A DNA stretch of 5,141 nucleotides from a virus: positions 1 to 5,141 of the IMG/VR virus record IMGVR_UViG_3300029698_000123. One strand, 5' to 3'. A program made the translations under genes and the position numbers. Below the pieces are notes generated by a model. It did no database searches, was not told the DNA's origin, and was given only the letters and a program-made list of their open reading frames with translations. Shown here in pieces: positions 1 to 5,141 of this stretch. Each line of letters opens with the position of its first letter. Positions within the stretch are counted from its first letter, which is position 1.

Positions 1-1
1 A

Positions 2-385
2 GAAACAATTGAAAATAAGAAAAATTTAGCAGAATCAACGCAAAATCGTTCAATTCGGTGGATATCGCATCCCCTTAGTGATGACCTTGCTCAAAAGTTC
101 TCCGTTTCTATCCATACCGAAGAACAAAAAATGTCTTATGTTACTAATGTCTTCGGTCACCGGATTATTGATATTCTGCTTTATCGTCCTGAGTTGCTTT
201 TCCTTGCTTGTTGCAAGTGGGAGCTGTTCTATAATGAACGTCTTCCGTTCTCCCCTCTGGCTCTGACACAGGAAGTCGCGCAGTTCTCGGAATCTTCCCG
301 CATTGCCTTTGAGGAATTTAAAGAAGTCGCTGATGACCCCTCTCCCTTTAGTGAAGTCGGGTTTGATGATATATTTTTATTCTGA
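2..385 (+). CDS. 5'-truncated ORF, probably the C-terminal part of the replication protein (or a gene-X-like product from the internal ATG at 131)
   Basis: Frame 2 is open from the window edge to TGA 383-385. Third codon positions are T/C-biased like the other phage genes. It lies directly upstream of the ssDNA-binding gene, where gII/gX sit in Ff phages. It shares an in-frame 12-nt repeat (His-Pro-Leu-Ser) with the Rep ORF at 5084-5095. Confidence 0.55.
   Translation, partial: ETIENKKNLAESTQNRSIRWISHPLSDDLAQKFSVSIHTEEQKMSYVTNVFGHRIIDILLYRPELLFLACCKWELFYNERLPFSPLALTQEVAQFSESSRIAFEEFKEVADDPSPFSEVGFDDIFLF
67..78 (+). repeat. Left copy of the 12-nt direct repeat gcatccccttag (candidate att core / recombination junction)
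   Basis: Identical 12-mer at 5084-5095. Both copies are in the same reading phase (cat ccc ctt ag) of the ORFs that contain them. Confidence 0.5.
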
Positions 386-403
386 TTAAAGGATGGTTGT
401 TTT

Positions 404-646
404 ATGAAAGCTACTGTAGTTGGTAAGTCCCGCCGCGCTGGCACATCTAAGCAGGGCAAAGACTATGATTTTACTACTCTAATGGTCGAGTATTTCATGC
501 GTGCAAACGATGACAATGAGGGTGTGCAGGTTGATAGAATCAATGTTGACGCTCGTATGATGACGTATGCGCTTATTGTCGTCGGCGCTACGTATGACTT
601 CGACTTTGACCGCAACGGATATCTTCTCGGAATTGAGGAAGTTTAA
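404..646 (+). CDS. Gene-V-like single-stranded DNA-binding protein (80 aa)
   Basis: AAAGGA Shine-Dalgarno (SD) at 388-393, about 10 nt before the ATG. Its size matches Ff gVp (87 aa). The segment RAGTSKQGKDY resembles RSGVSRQGKPY of the M13 gVp DNA-binding hairpin. Its position immediately after the rep/gX-like ORF is syntenic with Ff phages. Confidence 0.7.
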   Translation: MKATVVGKSRRAGTSKQGKDYDFTTLMVEYFMRANDDNEGVQVDRINVDARMMTYALIVVGATYDFDFDRNGYLLGIEEV

Positions 647-682
647 CTTTCTTTTTTCAAACTCAATTTCATTTCCTATGGT

Positions 683-700
683 AGAGCGGTTCGCCGCTCT
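683..700 (+). promoter_or_regulatory. Perfect 7-bp hairpin with a UUCG tetraloop, 5 nt upstream of the tRNA
   Basis: agagcgg-ttcg-ccgctct. No T-tract follows, so it is not a classical terminator. It may be an RNA processing or stability element, or an ssDNA structure. Confidence 0.45.
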
Positions 701-705
701 CACAT

Positions 706-779
706 GGCGGGGTGGTGCAATGGTAGCATGTCACTCTCTGAAGGTGAAGCTGCTGGTTCGAATCCAGACCCCGCAACCA
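706..779 (+). tRNA. tRNA-Gln, anticodon CUG, with encoded CCA
   Basis: A 74-nt cloverleaf drawn by hand. Acceptor 706-712/769-775 has 6 bp plus a G1.A72 mismatch. U8 is at 713. D arm is gtgc-aatggta-gcat, with A14, G18, G19 and A21. Anticodon arm is tcact-ctctgaa-ggtga, with U33, CUG and A37. The variable loop is agct. T arm is gctgg-ttcgaat-ccaga, with the TTC motif, G53-C61 and a G49.A65 mismatch. The discriminator is A776 and CCA is 777-779. Confidence 0.8.
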
Positions 780-826
780 TTTCGGATTGACCTCCGTTAT
801 TTGATGTCGCGAAAGGTGGTGGCGAA

Positions 827-1996
827 GTGAAGAAAAAGCCGCGGTGCTTATTGAAGCGCTTCGCCGCCCTTGTCGCGGCTCTGGTCATTTGTGCGGCTCT
901 GTGTGTTCCTTGTTTTGCTTCTAATAATTGGCCGTTTTCACCTGTTGCTAATGATTTTCTTTCTCATCCTAATTGTTGGTATGTTTGGCAACCTAAATCA
1001 ATTTCTGGTTTTTCTGGTTTTGAGTTGATTTGTCAGCCTATGTTTGAGGAAGGTTCTTCTAATACCCCTGATAATTCTTTTCCTTCTTATTCTACTAATT
1101 CGAATACTTATAGTTATACTAATGTGTCGGGTGTAACTCGTACTTTGATGTATTCTTTCCCTTATATTCCATGTTCTCCTCAGGCTGGTTATTGGTCTGA
1201 TTTGCCCTCTTTTCCTGTTGGTCAACCATCTGCTTATTGTTCTTGTGTCCGCATTTATCCTTGTACTTCTTATGGGTCTTTAAGCGGTATTTCTGACGTT
1301 TTTTCCGATCGTTCTATTTATGGGTTTTTAACTTCTTGGCGTTCTTCCGATTCATCTTCTATTTCTGATTATTATGACAATGAAATCTTAGATTATCTTC
1401 CGCTTTATGTTCCCTCTAATGCTTTCTTTTTTGGCGAGCGTACTTCTTCTTCTTCGTCTTCTTCTGGCTTTGTTATTTGTAATGGTGATAATAATTTTTG
1501 GGCTACTCCGTCTAACGAGAAATTTTTAGGTATTCGGCTTTCTCATTTTGGTTTTTTCAAATCTTTTCCCACTTCCTTTTCTATTCCATCTTCTGAGCTT
1601 GGTTTTGTTTTTTGTAAGCAGCCTTCTGGTACTCCTGAGTATTATAATTCTGTCTTTGATGCTTCTTTGAAATTCGCTGCTTCTCTTTGGGTTCCTGAAT
1701 CTCTGCTTCCTTCCGACGTTCGTGTTGGTGATTGGATTTCTAAATCTGATGTTGAATCGCTTCAAGATCAGCTCGTCAAAGATTTTGGTGTCACTTCCGA
1801 TACTTTGAAAAAATCCGAAGATAACTTGAATTCATGGGGTTCTACTTCTTCTGTTGATTCTGATGTTGCATCGACTTCTATTTCGGCACTCAACGCCTTG
1901 TTTCAGAACCTTGGCGGGTTTCTTTTCGTCGTTTCCCTTATGGTTTTCGGTGCCGTTGTGCTCCGTATGTTTATACGAAAGGCGGTTGACGGATGA
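827..1996 (+). CDS. pIII-like minor coat / host-adsorption protein (389 aa), secreted and C-terminally anchored
   Basis: GTG start, 10 nt after the AAAGG of SD GAAAGGTGG (811-819). N-terminal signal peptide MKKKPRCLLKRFAALVAALVICAALCVPCFA/SNN. The body is Ser-, Pro- and Cys-rich, with a poly-Ser linker. The C-terminal hydrophobic anchor GGFLFVVSLMVFGAVVLRMFIRKAVDG is followed by basic residues, as in Ff pIII. The product call rests on architecture only. Confidence 0.6.
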   Translation: MKKKPRCLLKRFAALVAALVICAALCVPCFASNNWPFSPVANDFLSHPNCWYVWQPKSISGFSGFELICQPMFEEGSSNTPDNSFPSYSTNSNTYSYTNVSGVTRTLMYSFPYIPCSPQAGYWSDLPSFPVGQPSAYCSCVRIYPCTSYGSLSGISDVFSDRSIYGFLTSWRSSDSSSISDYYDNEILDYLPLYVPSNAFFFGERTSSSSSSSGFVICNGDNNFWATPSNEKFLGIRLSHFGFFKSFPTSFSIPSSELGFVFCKQPSGTPEYYNSVFDASLKFAASLWVPESLLPSDVRVGDWISKSDVESLQDQLVKDFGVTSDTLKKSEDNLNSWGSTSSVDSDVASTSISALNALFQNLGGFLFVVSLMVFGAVVLRMFIRKAVDG

Positions 1997-2124
1997 CTTT
2001 TATTAACTTCTTCAAACAGGTCTTCGGTCTTTTTGGCTCCGGTGGCGCTCTCGTCATTGCCGTTGTCGTTTTTCTTGTCGGTCTTGGTATTTATAAGTTC
2101 GTAAAGGATTGGTTGCCATGGTAG
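1993..2124 (+). CDS. Small single-pass membrane protein (43 aa), virion or minor coat candidate
   Basis: Not in the ORF track because it is too short. The ATG overlaps the upstream TGA (ATGA). SD GAAAGG lies at 1977-1982, 10 nt upstream. Sequence is MTFINFFKQVFGLFGSGGALVIAVVVFLVGLGIYKFVKDWLPW. Third codon positions are T/C-rich. Confidence 0.55.
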   Translation: MTFINFFKQVFGLFGSGGALVIAVVVFLVGLGIYKFVKDWLPW

Positions 2125-2285
2125 ACTTTGTTTCCGCTCTTGGCGTTTTTACCTCGTTTATCGCCAATGTGCTTTCTATTTCCTTTTTTGGCTTCGGTAC
2201 TTTTGGCAATTTTATTTTGGTTTGTCTTCTGCTTTCGCTTGTTGGTTTTGTTCTTCGTGGCCTTTGGGATGGAGGTGATAAATAA
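2118..2285 (+). CDS. Small hydrophobic membrane protein (55 aa, probably two TM segments)
   Basis: The ATG lies inside the upstream stop context (ATGGTAG). AAAGG lies at 2103-2107, 10 nt upstream. Sequence is MVDFVSALGVFTSFIANVLSISFFGFGTFGNFILVCLLLSLVGFVLRGLWDGGDK. The TAATG overlap couples it to the next gene. Confidence 0.55.
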   Translation: MVDFVSALGVFTSFIANVLSISFFGFGTFGNFILVCLLLSLVGFVLRGLWDGGDK

Positions 2286-2896
2286 TGGAAGTCCCTACTA
2301 TCATTAAAACTTGGATTGATTCTGATGGCGTGACTGTCTATACGGTTCAGTATGAAGACGGTCGTACCTGTGATATGACTGTTCAGCAGTATGATTATCT
2401 CAAAGCATCTGCTCAGGCTGTTGCCGATTTAGATGCTAAAGGTTCTGCTGAATCTCAGCCGGAAGAAACTCCTGCTCCCTCTGAGCCTGCGCAGAACATT
2501 ACCGAAAGTCCTGACCTCCGCGAAGACTATGTGCCGCAGGAAGATGAGTTGCCGTTTGAAGGGAGTTTAACCGCTTATGATGACCGCGCCGCAGATACTC
2601 CAGCTTTGTATGCTAATCTCCCTGCTGTCTCTAATAGTTTCACTGCTATTATGGATTGGTTTGGTGATACGTTTTTCATCGAACGCTCTGAGACGGTGCA
2701 CAAGTCCGGCTATACGTCTGAAAGGTACTCCTATAATAGTTCGACTCAACTTATTCAGCTTCCTTTTGAGGAGGATACCACTACTACAACTCAGGTTCTC
2801 AACCCGCAAGCTTGCGTTTCTGCTTTGCTTGTTGTCCTTGTCTTCGTTACTACTGTTACTTGGATTAAAAACGCGATTTGGGGGCGCATGAGTTAA
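2285..2896 (+). CDS. Acidic protein with a C-terminal transmembrane anchor (203 aa), function unknown
   Basis: Strong SD GGAGGTGA at 2271-2278. TAATG overlaps occur at both ends. Amino-acid composition is diverse and non-repetitive. It has a Pro/Glu-rich linker and the C-terminal TM ACVSALLVVLVFVTTVTWI followed by KNAIWGR. No signal peptide is apparent. Confidence 0.7.
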   Translation: MEVPTIIKTWIDSDGVTVYTVQYEDGRTCDMTVQQYDYLKASAQAVADLDAKGSAESQPEETPAPSEPAQNITESPDLREDYVPQEDELPFEGSLTAYDDRAADTPALYANLPAVSNSFTAIMDWFGDTFFIERSETVHKSGYTSERYSYNSSTQLIQLPFEEDTTTTTQVLNPQACVSALLVVLVFVTTVTWIKNAIWGRMS

Positions 2897-3009
2897 TGGA
2901 AATTCTTCCTTTTCAGTATTGTTTCGGAATCTTCTCTGTTCCCGAAATTGGTTATTTCATTATTTTCGCTGCTGTTTTTTCTATGTTGGTCCTCCTGTTC
3001 CGTTCGTGA
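2896..3009 (+). CDS. Small membrane protein (37 aa)
   Basis: Start is coupled by TAATG to the upstream gene. Sequence is MEILPFQYCFGIFSVPEIGYFIIFAAVFSMLVLLFRS. Third positions are T/C-rich. It is similar in size to Ff pVII/pIX. Confidence 0.5.
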   Translation: MEILPFQYCFGIFSVPEIGYFIIFAAVFSMLVLLFRS

Positions 3010-3107
3010 CAGGTGACATAAATATCTTTATGAAAGGATGATGACTTCAGGCCGCTACATCTATTCTCGCAACGCTGCTTTCCTTGGTCGGTGAGTTCTT
3101 TACATCG

Positions 3108-3236
3108 ATGGTTACTTGGATGGGTCAGCTCATTGATTTTTATGAGTCCGAGCCTATTCTTCTCGTCTTTGTTATTCTCACTATCGCGGGCATCGTTCTC
3201 CGTATTCTTCGCCGCTGGATTCCCGGTCGTAGTTAA
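3108..3236 (+). CDS. Major coat protein candidate, Pf3-like and leaderless (42 aa)
   Basis: Sequence MVTWMGQLIDFYESEPILLVFVILTIAGIVLRILRRWIPGRS has an acidic N-terminus, one TM helix and a basic C-terminus, which is the classic inovirus coat layout. A strong terminator follows directly, as after gene VIII in Ff. The start is uncertain because the SD is weak; see the finding on 3010-3107. Confidence 0.5.
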   Translation: MVTWMGQLIDFYESEPILLVFVILTIAGIVLRILRRWIPGRS

Positions 3237-3243
3237 ATGCTGA

Positions 3244-3292
3244 GAGAAAACGCCGCCGACCATTTTGATGGTCGGCGACGTTTTCTCGTTTT
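3244..3292 (+). terminator. Long hairpin, Rho-independent terminator-like element between the coat and assembly genes
   Basis: Arms 3244-3263 and 3268-3287 pair at 19 of 20 positions (one C.A mismatch), with loop tttg. The core is GC-rich. The T-rich run ttttctcgtttt covers the 3' end of the stem and the bases after it. An A-run in the 5' arm makes the element look bidirectional. Confidence 0.65.
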
Positions 3293-3934
3293 ATGAAAGG
3301 ATTATATGCTATGCTTTATGGTATTCTTGTCTTTTGTATTTGCTGGCTTTTTGTATATATCGATAATTATTGCAAAAACCCCTATAAATTGGAAGCTGTT
3401 GTTGGTTCAAAAGGCTCTGGCAAATCTCTGTATATGTCTCGCGTTGCTGATAAGTGGCTTCGTTCTAACAAGGGGCTTATCTATTCTAATATGGGTATTG
3501 GTTATGAATTAGAGCCTGAATACTGGAAACAGACCTTTCTTCCTGATTCTCTTATTCTTATCGATGAAATTGGCGTGCTTCATTCCAACCGCGACTTCAA
3601 AACTATGCCCCGTGAAGCAGTTGAGTTTTTCAAGATGCAGCGCAAATATCACCTGACTATTATTGTATCGTCTCAGACCATGGACTTTGACAAAAAGATT
3701 CGTGACCTTTGCGACCGCATCTACCTTTGTAACCGTATTGGCTGGTTCTGTCGTCTCACTCCCTATCGCTCCTGCATTGCTATGGAACATCGCCCCGAGG
3801 GAGGTCAAGAACTGGTTAACACTGTGCGGAAGGCAGGTAGGGCTAAGTGGTATACCATCCCTAAGTCCGTGAAGCAGGTAAGTGCCTTAGAATACGATAC
3901 AGAGCAGGTTATTAGCAAGACCCCCTCTAAATAA
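3293..3934 (+). CDS. pI / Zot-like phage assembly ATPase (213 aa, or 207 aa from ATG 3311)
   Basis: Walker A GSKGSGKS at 3404-3427. Walker B LILIDE at 3551-3568. LILIDEIGVLHSNRDF and FFKMQRKYHLTIIVSSQ parallel M13 pI LLVLDECGTWFNTRSW and FLHARKLGWDIIFLVQD. An N-terminal hydrophobic helix is present. ATG 3311 has the genome-typical AAAGG SD exactly 10 nt upstream, so it may be the true start. Confidence 0.85.
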   Translation: MKGLYAMLYGILVFCICWLFVYIDNYCKNPYKLEAVVGSKGSGKSLYMSRVADKWLRSNKGLIYSNMGIGYELEPEYWKQTFLPDSLILIDEIGVLHSNRDFKTMPREAVEFFKMQRKYHLTIIVSSQTMDFDKKIRDLCDRIYLCNRIGWFCRLTPYRSCIAMEHRPEGGQELVNTVRKAGRAKWYTIPKSVKQVSALEYDTEQVISKTPSK

Positions 3935-3940
3935 AAACTT

Positions 3941-3980
3941 CCCCCCGTGCCCTTTAGGGTCAGGGGGGTTGTTTTTATTT
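3941..3980 (+). terminator. Rho-independent terminator after the assembly gene
   Basis: cccccc...gggggg stem (3941-3968) with an internal loop and an inner ccct/aggg stem, followed by ttgtttttattt. Confidence 0.6.
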
Positions 3981-4164
3981 ACTATTAGTTTTTTTAATAC
4001 ACTTTTTCCTGCATTTGCCGGCATTTTTGCAGGCAGTAGCTTCGTTTAGTCACGCGATAGCGTCTCCACCGCGTCCCCCGTCCCCGCAAGGGCAAAGCCC
4101 TTGCCCTTCCTAAACAGGCTTTTATGGGGTTTCGATACGTAGTGACTGCCGTGACGGCGGGGGC
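3981..4164 (+). other. Structured non-coding intergenic region, candidate replication origin, packaging signal or attP
   Basis: No credible ORF. Direct repeat gcattt at 4011-4016 and 4021-4026, flanking the palindrome tgccggca (4016-4023). Perfect hairpin gcaagggc-aaa-gcccttgc at 4086-4104. Long-range inverted repeat 4066-4082 / 4153-4169 (14 Watson-Crick pairs plus 1 GU out of 17). It is much more GC-rich than the rest of the phage. Its position between the assembly gene and rep matches the Ff intergenic region. Confidence 0.5.
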
Positions 4165-4206
4165 GGTGGGCGTTCGTGTAATACGCCCACCTTTTTTTGA
4201 TTTTTT
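4165..4206 (+). terminator. Rho-independent terminator immediately upstream of the rep promoter
   Basis: Stem ggtgggcgt (4165-4173) pairs with acgcccacc (4183-4191) around a 9-nt loop, followed by tttttttgatttttt. Confidence 0.65.
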
Positions 4207-4207
4207 C

Positions 4208-4236
4208 TTGACAGCTCCTTCATATTGTGGTAACAT
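4208..4236 (+). promoter_or_regulatory. Sigma70-type promoter for rep
   Basis: TTGACA at 4208-4213, a 17-nt spacer, an extended -10 TGG at 4228-4230, and TAACAT at 4231-4236. The predicted transcription start is near 4243, 26 nt before the rep ATG. Confidence 0.6.
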
Positions 4237-4268
4237 TTAACCATGGAAATGAAAGGTGGTTTTCTCAC

Positions 4269-5141
4269 ATGAAAACGGTTGTTAAGCTTGATTATGCTAC
4301 GTTTGTTTTTGAGCAAGGTTCGATTTCTATTTCCATGATCGAAGATGCGCTTGCTCAGTGCGATTTACATTTTTCGCAGATTTCTAACGCAAGTGAGAAT
4401 TCTCCCTACAATTCCCCTGCGGGTCTTTTCTATAAGCCGAACAACGGCGCGAAACAGTCTCCGCACTCTCTCCAAGTTTCTGGTCATGGTTGTGAGCTTT
4501 TCCGTTCCACCTTGCCGCGTCTTGCGTCACTGATGGAAGGTCACGAATTCGGTCACTTTTCCCGTCTTGATTTTTGTTTCGATGTTGTTATGACTAAAGA
4601 ACGTTGGCGCGAGTTCTATTTGGGTGTTATTTCTGCTTCTGTCGATGAAATGAATTACCCTGAAAAAGCCCGTAAGGTTCGTAAAGTCATGTATCAGGGC
4701 TATGGCGATTCTACTACAGTCTATATCGGTCGTAGAGCGTCTTCTGCGGTCTTCTGCCGTATCTATAATAAGTCCCTGCAAGACCCTGAAGAAAAGCTTT
4801 GTGTGGCTTCTGGTGAGTTTCTGGACTGCCCTGATGATTCCTATATCATTCGTTATGAGATGGAATTGAAATTTACTTCTCGAGTTCGTTCTGGTTCTCG
4901 TACTGTCTATGACCCGTCTCCGCTTTTCTGGTTTTACTACGAAGACCCTGAGAAGCTTTTCACCTATCTTCGTAAAGTTTGGAATCGTTACGGAAATGAA
5001 ACTCTTCTTCCCGATGGCTGGGACGATATGCAGTTCGTGACCGATATGGTAGCCCGTGGCATTCATTACACTGATGACTTTTGGCATCCCCTTAGCGGCG
5101 CGGAAAAAGCCCGCCGCGCAAGGGCTTGCGGACGCGGCGGG
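4269..5141 (+). CDS. Rolling-circle replication initiator, Rep_trans family (pT181 RepC / CTXphi RstA-like); 3' end not in the window, or disrupted after 5095
   Basis: I translated this by hand and found no stop from ATG 4269 to the window end (291 codons). SD AAAGGTGG lies at 4252-4259. Motifs typical of the family are LDYATFVF, LQVSGHGCELF, SRLDFCFD, TVYIGRRASSAVFCRIYNK and IIRYEMELKF. It is absent from the ORF track only because it lacks a stop codon. The track ORF 4527-5087(-) is its antisense shadow. Confidence 0.85.
   Translation, partial: MKTVVKLDYATFVFEQGSISISMIEDALAQCDLHFSQISNASENSPYNSPAGLFYKPNNGAKQSPHSLQVSGHGCELFRSTLPRLASLMEGHEFGHFSRLDFCFDVVMTKERWREFYLGVISASVDEMNYPEKARKVRKVMYQGYGDSTTVYIGRRASSAVFCRIYNKSLQDPEEKLCVASGEFLDCPDDSYIIRYEMELKFTSRVRSGSRTVYDPSPLFWFYYEDPEKLFTYLRKVWNRYGNETLLPDGWDDMQFVTDMVARGIHYTDDFWHPLSGAEKARRARACGRGG
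5084..5095 (+). repeat. Right copy of the 12-nt direct repeat gcatccccttag
   Basis: Identical to 67-78 and in the same codon phase within the Rep ORF. Composition switches to GC-rich immediately afterwards. Confidence 0.5.
5096..5141 (+). repeat. GC-rich palindromic element with two mutually exclusive hairpins, related to the intergenic GC island
   Basis: A 9-bp stem joins cccgccgcg (5110-5118) and cgcggcggg (5133-5141). An alternative stem joins 5095-5103 and 5110-5117. It shares cgcaagggc (5117-5125 vs 4085-4093) and gacg(c)ggcggg (5131-5141 vs 4153-4161) with the intergenic region. It is cut by the window edge. Confidence 0.5.

Follow-up and report, generated by a model that had tools for sequence, protein, structure and literature searches.

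An inovirus-like prophage of the human gut that lacks an integrase and is probably integrated site-specifically through its own rep gene

Filamentous phages belonging to the integrative mobile elements exploiting Xer (IMEX; the XacF1, Cf, CTXphi, and VGJphi types) lack an integrase and enter the chromosome through a short, host-like attachment site on the phage (attP), the exchange being carried out by a host enzyme. In the Xanthomonas phage XacF1, attP lies inside ORF12, an open reading frame (ORF) that integration splits, and integrated and free forms coexist (PMC5666396). Inovirus prophages without an integrase and without a tRNA target, bounded by direct repeats of at least 10 bp, were described by Roux et al. 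(2019), who reported 994 metagenome cases (PMC6813254). In the archaeal fuselloviruses, the SSV1-type 'suicidal' integrases have their attP in an essential gene, which integration breaks into fragments and excision makes whole again (PMC8371274). Here we analyze a stretch of viral DNA of 5,141 nucleotides (IMG/VR record IMGVR_UViG_3300029698_000123, positions 1 to 5,141; hereinafter, the window), which, with a probability that we estimate at about 85%, is the intact and complete prophage of a 5.0-kb inovirus-like phage of a human-gut Oscillospiraceae-like bacterium, integrated site-specifically through a short sequence inside rep, the gene of its replication initiator.

Like the IMEX, this phage has no integrase and a short host-like attP; but XacF1 uses XerCD at dif, whereas the chromosomal attachment site used here (attB) is not dif-like. 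In addition, unlike in the IMEX, the attachment motif has a second, inverted copy at a distance of 1.3 kb, integration splits the replication initiator gene itself, and the host is a Gram-positive-type gut bacterium. The class of Roux et al. was defined by the repeats alone, whereas for this locus attB, attP, the recurrence of integration, and the position of attP within rep could be worked out. The SSV1-type systems, for their part, target a tRNA gene and split the gene of the very integrase that carries out the reaction, whereas here the split gene encodes a rolling-circle initiator. The locus differs from the known cases in its non-dif target, in the splitting of a rolling-circle initiator at a domain linker, and in a motif that is kept across lineages in different frames.

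The window was found at 100% identity in two human-gut contigs, of 75 and 50 kb (L003 9175-14315 and L004 711-5851), both of which carry exactly the same 389-aa phage protein. A first-pass annotation, made from the letters of the window, had pointed to a 12-mer repeated near both ends in the same codon phase, and had proposed a circular element, integrated through that short core, whose rep would be rebuilt on circularization. The exact search recovered the repeat in that phase; the joining of 4269..5095 to 79..385 did give the predicted 1,134 nt and an ORF of 377 aa ending at the TGA at 385; and the integration proposal was borne out by the finding of attB, attP, and the two hybrid sites attL and attR. 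The features involved are the following:

1..66, plus strand: host DNA, left arm of attB; 100% identical to L003 9175-9240 and to L004; intergenic, upstream of a minus-strand SLH gene
67..78, plus strand: attL core GCATCCCCTTAG; homology to episomal relatives begins exactly here (window 67 corresponding to L008 2257)
79..385, plus strand: 3' part of rep, codons 277-377, C-terminal helical domain; colinear with the C-termini of Reps of 377-378 aa
131..385, plus strand: internal-start ORF of 84 aa (MSYV...), in frame in rep; called as a gene in L003
4269..5083, plus strand: 5' part of rep, codons 1 to about 272, Rep_trans catalytic domain; PF02486, 27 bits (cutoff 29.6)
5084..5095, plus strand: attR core GCATCCCCTTAG; homology to episomal relatives ends at window 5097, and host homology begins at 5084
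5096..5141, plus strand: host DNA that forms the right arm of attB; hsp20 follows about 350 nt downstream of this G+C-rich hairpin region

The two exact copies of GCATCCCCTTAG, at 67-78 and 5084-5095, are spaced by 5,017 bp and are both read in the phase cAT CCC CTT AG (H P L S), and no further copy with up to 2 mismatches was found on either strand of the whole window. The breaks in composition that had been noticed at the ends hold as well, positions 1-66 having 47% A and positions 5096-5141 having 79% G+C, against a phage body with 36% T. As had also been cautioned, a repeated 12-mer is by itself unremarkable, because order-2 Markov simulations yielded a mean of about 2.8 repeated 12-mers, with at least one in 87% of the simulations, and the window itself contains 5 independent exact direct repeats of at least 12 nt; a 12-mer common to the first and last 150 nt was obtained in 0 of 500 simulations. 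The decisive support lies outside the window, in attB, attP, and the independent sets of attL and attR.

When the window was extended into L003 and L004, both flanks were host DNA, and the Rep ORF did not continue with homology past 5141, but reached its stop after 15 host residues, with a TAG at L003 14316-14318, 3 nt outside the window. As to the left ORF, which has no stop from window position 2 onward, its stretch over 1-66 is host sequence that is stop-free in this frame by chance. The empty attB, with one core copy between contiguous flanks (66 joined through the core to 5096), was present in the related strains L010-L013, L015, and L016 (the left arm adjoining the right flank in L010, L012, and L015), in which sites the left and right flanks overlap by precisely the 12 core nt. 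Likewise, attP, with one core inside an intact rep, was found in L008, L047, 27 IMG/VR contigs, and dozens of metagenome contigs, all of about 5 kb, and the circular junction (5083 through the core to 79) was present in the relatives of that size L008, L047, and L017-L039; in the episomal L008, window positions 4025-5097 and 67-928 fall on neighboring segments, which have the core in common. When 7 sequences (attL, attR, three attB, and two attP) were aligned, the core was invariant, with the pattern expected of reciprocal hybrids, attL and attR combining the arms of attP and attB; the site was moreover reused by independent elements, and no element-encoded integrase was found beside attP. Scans of IMG/VR with attL-type (H + core + phage right arm) and attR-type patterns returned only attP variants or nothing. 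An insertion with a target duplication inside rep, which had been offered as an alternative in the first-pass annotation, was rejected because the flanks are bacterial chromosome and not cargo. In the rebuilt attP, the core lies between the direct repeats TGATGACTT (window 5072-5080) and TGATGACCTT (79-88), which encode T-DD-F and S-DD-L, respectively, and which arrangement may be coincidental.

Two contigs from different assemblies, L006 and L007, have as their first base window 78, with which the attL core ends, and the identity downstream of it is 100%; these starts imply an assembly-graph branch at 77/78. Branching of the graph near the core could favor an assembly artefact, in which a circular phage was wrongly joined to bacterial sequence at the common 12-mer; but the same junctions occur in independent assemblies of at least 4 samples, obtained with different assemblers and k of 119-141, far larger than 12, and attB, attL, and attR are mutually consistent across strains. 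We therefore find an artefact scarcely credible.

The protein rebuilt across the junction is colinear with full-length relatives. It matches phrog_27843 over positions 1-377 of 378 (E 1.9e-255) and covers 100% of more than 120 clusters of 377-378 aa, all of them on contigs of at most 5.7 kb, with 84-94% identity and with no indel at the joint; the Reps of porcine inoviruses (39-42% identical) are also colinear over their whole length, except that a gap of 4 residues opens immediately past the joint. The PF02486 score was 27.0 for the rebuilt Rep, below the cutoff of 29.6, 30.0 for the 93%-identical P0002, and 26.2 for the lineage B described below, the alignment covering only the first half of the profile. 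The Rep_trans fold was recognized by Foldseek in the model of the 94%-identical P0001, whose top four PDB matches corresponded to 4cij, 4cwc, and 4cwe (Rep_trans, 268-270 aa; E 4e-6 to 3e-5, probability 1.0, TM scores 0.26-0.47), the model itself being modest (pLDDT 56); when the Rep profile was searched against the PDB sequences, no meaningful match was obtained. The N-terminal 270 residues or so share the fold family of the Rep_trans proteins of the pT181 family (RepC, RepD, RepDE, and RepSTK1), to which the sequence match is marginal; in contrast to that family, the Rep described here continues into an additional C-terminal domain, whose internal start recalls Ff gene X. A candidate catalytic tyrosine would be Y196, within the invariant motif IRYE.E.K, as assigned only by its position in the Pfam alignment.

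In the P0001 model the core falls within residues 269-289, of low pLDDT, and a helical domain follows; attP lies, as modeled, in the linker between the predicted Rep_trans nuclease domain (residues 1 to about 270) and the C-terminal helical domain. The residues immediately upstream of the core are the most variable of the Rep alignment, and the internal Met that starts the ORF at 131-385 is nearly invariant among relatives. The truncated Rep has 291 aa and ends in HPLS followed by GAEKARRARACGRGG and a stop, its last 15 codons being host-encoded; the exact protein was found in 4 contigs from 4 samples, whose phage parts are identical. According to this model, integration cuts between the two predicted Rep modules, each of which is left intact and might function in the lysogen.

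Truncated Reps were searched for with the N-terminal 276 residues, which procedure revealed the same host-encoded tail in P0243 (87% identical) and in P0244. The same attB, with the same core, is the site of at least 4 phage variants, whose prophages are 75-80% identical (L052, L054, L055, and L105, of which L054 comes from a Hadza sample). In L052, a 49-kb contig, a different variant lies between the same flanks: compared with L003, the left 170 nt and the right 340 nt are 100% identical and hsp20 is 99.8% identical, whereas the prophages are 80.3% identical, from which divergence between identical flanks we conclude that integration is recurrent and site-specific. L053, in turn, which carries a sister variant, that of L052, starts with 108 nt of the rep N-terminal end, followed by the core, the phage right arm, the whole phage, and attR plus host DNA. 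Since L053 is a k127 contig, its first k-mer spans the attP junction, which junction, together with attR, indicates that a circular or tandem form of the L052 variant coexists with the integrated one. A single accidental microhomology event, today a dead remnant inherited vertically, might be argued from the observation of the window's own variant solely in the integrated state, where the junctions of four samples coincide and their phage parts are 100% identical, and from the lack of its exact intact Rep in the protein collection. That possibility is largely refuted by the reuse of the site by other variants (L052, L054, L055, and L105), with identical host flanks in the comparison of L052 with L003, and by the attP junction found together with attR in L053; furthermore, the phage ORFs of the window are all intact and the motif is conserved in free-living relatives. 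An accident of this kind is accordingly most improbable.

The attB consists of a near-palindromic motif, GGTGGATATCGCATCCCCTTAG, located about 175 nt from the SLH gene and about 350 nt from hsp20, upstream of both. In lineage A, which includes the window phage, the identity to attB is of 12 nt in the window and of 15-16 nt in variants, e.g., TATCGCATCCCCTTAG and GCATCCCCTTAGCGA. Lineage B, whose Rep is about 58-60% identical, being whole in L106-L108 but cut short at residue 275 in L113 and L114, has the attP GGGGATATCGCATCCCCTTG, with 17-18 nt of identity to attB, and integrates at the same rep position as the window phage; but it reads the string as CGC ATC CCC TTG, one nt off the window register CAT CCC CTT, from which frame shift between the two lineages we conclude that the motif is selected as DNA. 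The location of attP in a sequence-tolerant linker would explain that the motif can be kept in either frame with both Rep modules intact. In lineage C (Rep 38% identical), a near-identical palindrome, GGGGATATCGTATCCCCTTA (also given as GGGGATATCGTATCCCC), occupies the homologous rep position. Across variants the attP-attB identity spans 12-18 nt, always around GCATCCCCTT. The L114 prophage lies upstream of hsp20 in a more distant host, and that of L113 adjoins other genes (DUF4367, DUF6551, and HipBA). The L114 prophage, at 3009-5511, is a partial one, of which the right part alone is present, corresponding to L106 from near position 2893 up to the core within rep, and joined on the left to unrelated host DNA, which fragment is either a decayed remnant or a low-coverage misassembly; neither at its left end nor in the L015 rearrangement mentioned below was a clean junction found at the motif.

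The variable length of the identity (12-18 nt), with variants that seem selected for longer matches, and the negative search for a recombinase in the phage ORFs are compatible with short-homology recombination, RecA-dependent or independent, acting upon a chance or selected identity with no dedicated enzyme. At variance with that explanation, at least 4 divergent variants and a second lineage share the exact position with precise junctions, 12 nt is far under the usual length for efficient homologous recombination, and the other exact repeats of 12-13 nt of the window are not used, so that we hold it to be improbable.

As regards the enzyme, all ORFs of the window were compared with Pfam and PHROGs, and no recombinase, transposase, or integrase domain was found in any of them. 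The circular phage genome recombined with the chromosome at the short sequence common to attP and attB, yielding attL (67-78) and attR (5084-5095); rep was thereby split into a 291-aa N-terminal product with a host tail and a C-terminal fragment that keeps the internal start, and circularization restores the 377-aa rep. In the mechanism that we favor, analogous to that of the Xer-exploiting phages, the exchange would be performed by a site-specific recombinase of the host, the phage mimicking the natural site of this enzyme, which we prefer because the phage encodes no recombinase, although we would give it, among the enzyme options, slightly less than an even chance.

Several observations weigh against this mechanism. 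No recombinase was called within about 10 kb on the host contigs, and the half-sites, of 6-7 bp, are short for a classical tyrosine-recombinase core. Conservation of the core at synonymous sites in lineage A is moderate (0.10 vs. a mean of 0.24; rank 37 of 373 windows), core variants such as GCATCCTCTTAG exist, and the window's own variant matches just the right half of the motif. Furthermore, in lineages B and C the palindrome stem is kept despite loop differences, as in L001, which conservation hints at a possible phage-intrinsic role that host mimicry would not need. Finally, the window's exact variant was not found in episomal form, and an exact look-up of the rebuilt 377-aa Rep in the protein collection gave no match, so that this particular prophage can at most be presumed active. 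As to the identity of the host site, the best matches of attB and the motif to five dif sequences were no better than those of shuffled controls, and the motif occurs twice within 1.5 kb; dif-likeness of attB was hence rejected.

The stem just mentioned corresponds, in lineages B and C, to a 7-8-bp palindrome or hairpin, AGGGGAT-N3-5-ATCCCCT (-6.1 to -6.8 kcal/mol; z -2.3 to -3.5), whose left arm is degenerate in lineage A, the most abundant one. A conserved attP hairpin in lineage A (stem ACTTTTG/CAAAAGT in the window) was rejected, since the relatives do not keep the stem, and so was a CTXphi-style attP of folded single-stranded DNA, as the core, even with 2 mismatches allowed, does not recur in inverted orientation in the phage. 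Origin hairpins of the pT181-family plasmids lie inside rep, phiX174 likewise has its nick site within gene A, and short nic-like targets are where TrwC and similar relaxases integrate DNA. If, alternatively to a host recombinase, the Rep itself were the catalyst, the motif would be its nick site, either the plus-strand origin or an origin-like hairpin within rep, and Rep_trans would nick attP and a chromosomal look-alike and join the strands. This proposal would account for a precise and recurrent integration although an integrase is absent, and for an attP located in rep across three Rep lineages, of which B and C retain the stem of their 7-8-bp hairpin where the loop differs. The truncated Rep keeps the whole Rep_trans-like domain; displacement from attL to attR would release the very strand that carries all the genes; and the conserved block upstream of rep is unlikely to be a Rep-specific origin, because it is 95% identical where the Reps are 39% identical. 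Nevertheless, the most abundant lineage has lost the left arm of the hairpin, the identity to attB extends in different directions (12-18 nt), which pattern fits the matching of a host site better than a fixed nick site, the host motif lies at two paralogous promoter-proximal positions, pointing to a host function, and the motif shows no similarity to the pT181 nick sequence. We accordingly consider integration by the Rep to be unlikely. Equally doubtful is the stronger version, in which Rep_trans would be the integrase, and rolling-circle replication from the attL core to the attR core would release a complete genome from a single prophage; were that version true, the retained N-terminal nuclease domain would, by such rolling-out, rebuild the full rep without excision.

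Returning to the host recombinase, the second, inverted copy of the motif, TATCGCATCCCCTTA, was located at L003 15563-15575, L010 6445-6457, and L052 12166-12178 (minus strand in all three), 1.3-1.5 kb from attB, across hsp20, and 173-185 nt upstream of a paralogous SLH gene, in surroundings that cannot be aligned; the like distance in such diverged surroundings suggests a host function of the motif. This copy could serve as a secondary site of attachment, or else bound an invertible segment as the partner of attB, in which case an inversion between the core and the second copy (motif string GGATATCGCATCCCCTT) would give the junction GGATATCGCATCCCCTTAAAGATGGTTCG, composed of the core and the reverse complement of the second copy.

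The prophage, of 5,017 bp, has as neighbors a minus-strand gene of an SLH-domain surface protein and hsp20, whose protein is 81% identical to proteins named Oscillospiraceae bacterium and which is preceded by a CIRCE-like inverted repeat. The host locus comprises two inverted paralogous SLH-domain genes around hsp20 (L003 5910-9065, minus strand, and 15748-18759, plus strand), whose 65-nt leaders are 100% identical. In L010 (2799-4811) the left SLH copy is 5'-truncated, with 670 aa and no SLH domain, and in L015 (5112-7604) it is the right copy that is truncated, the segment with hsp20 having the opposite orientation with respect to the DUF4097 side, which variation looks like an apparent cassette rearrangement at a surface-protein locus. 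In every attB variant a direct-repeat box, GGTAGC-N6-GGTAGC, occurs about 45 nt to the right of the core and again about 70-90 nt further (L003 14304-14330 and 14400-14425; L054 5302-5317; L113 4318 and 4387; L114 5557 and 5626), with a core-to-box spacer of constant length and variable sequence. An Rfam search of the attB region gave zero matches. A scan of the GTDB species representatives with the Rep alignment revealed no host genome and no further prophages, the sole locus being a 5.4-kb contig in a Roseburia metagenome-assembled genome, with an intact Rep that is 48% identical.

The remaining features of the phage, placed between the two parts of rep, are these:

404..646, plus strand: 80-aa protein in gene-V position, putatively single-stranded-DNA-binding; by position and a weak match to phrog_929 (RstB, E 0.002)
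706..779, plus strand: tRNA-Gln (CTG); ARAGORN, and Rfam RF00005 with 49.5 bits
827..1996, plus strand: 389-aa protein with N-terminal signal-like and C-terminal hydrophobic segments; phrog_24417, E 2e-74
1993..2285, plus strand: two small hydrophobic proteins, candidate coat or assembly proteins, of 43 aa (1993-2124) and 55-58 aa (2109/2118-2285); phrog_22214 and phrog_24276, and gene calls in L003
2285..3009, plus strand: 203-aa protein with a C-terminal membrane segment, followed by a hydrophobic protein of 37-43 aa; phrog_27347 and phrog_27039
3084..3236, plus strand: 50-aa hydrophobic protein, from the ORF list
3254-3277, downstream of the 50-aa ORF: terminator-like hairpin, from the terminator scan (inverted repeat I3)
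3293..3934, plus strand: Zot/pI-like assembly ATPase of 213 aa (called with 207 aa from 3311); PF05707 Zot, 25.1 bits with a cutoff of 20.3, phrog_25712, and phrog_197 (Zot-like)
3949..4268, plus strand: intergenic region upstream of rep, with a terminator-like hairpin (3949-3969), G+C-rich hairpins, a conserved block (4042-4117), and a promoter-like site (4208-4236)

Every ORF of the window matches a PHROG, all the phage ORFs are intact, and all the genes lie on one strand in the ORF map. In GenBank, the records closest to it are 'Inovirus sp.' genomes from pig, circular and of 4.9-5.5 kb. The phage has the attributes of an inovirus, namely, a Zot/pI-type ATPase, a small circular genome, as seen in circularly permuted contigs of about 5 kb, a rolling-circle Rep, genes on one strand, and several small hydrophobic coat-like proteins, its type being read from the genome. 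The gene downstream of rep had been taken in the first-pass annotation for that of a single-stranded-DNA-binding protein: its gene-V position stands, whereas that identity is only suggested, by the position and the weak RstB-family match, and a Pfam search with the 80-aa protein gave no match. The 389-aa protein is a candidate adsorption (pIII-like) protein, to judge from sequence features and gene order; the pseudogenization of its gene, which might be supposed from the 318-aa calls in L044 and L046, was rejected, since the phage DNA is identical and the start call differs. In the proteins of 2285..3009, no recombinase domain was found in Pfam or PHROGs.

The tRNA-Gln sits between the gene-V-like ORF and the 389-aa gene, with the anticodon CTG, which is TTG in L009. 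It was found in all of the 15 relatives scanned (L001, L002, L008, L009, L017, L019, L023, L028, L033, L036, L039, L043, L047, L052, and L054), including lineages with a Rep only 38-48% identical, and is about 94% identical to the porcine inovirus copy, the flanking DNA being about 71% identical; a literature search yielded no paper that combined 'inovirus' and 'tRNA-Gln'. In the intergenic region, the block at 4042-4117 is 94.7% identical to the porcine Inovirus MT135293 (L001 3404-3479), the Reps being 39% identical; this block is a module conserved independently of the Rep, perhaps a packaging signal or a minus-strand origin. A very basic ORF of 80 aa runs divergently from rep on the minus strand (3994-4236) and is called in L008 (78 aa) and in L054 (53 aa), which ORF could encode a regulator or be spurious.

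Many inovirus prophages, especially those of Gram-positive and gut bacteria, carry no integrase and are bounded only by short repeats. The phage studied here provides an abundant test case, with a 10-18-nt motif, with attB, attP, attL, and attR in hand, and with several independent integrations, in which integration physically separates the nuclease domain of the Rep from its C-terminal domain. Two hypotheses become testable, namely, the capture of a host recombinase at a non-dif site upstream of surface-protein genes, or recombination by the rolling-circle initiator. For the gut Oscillospiraceae-like bacteria, the finding means a recurrent lysogeny by filamentous phages beside a variable SLH surface-protein locus.

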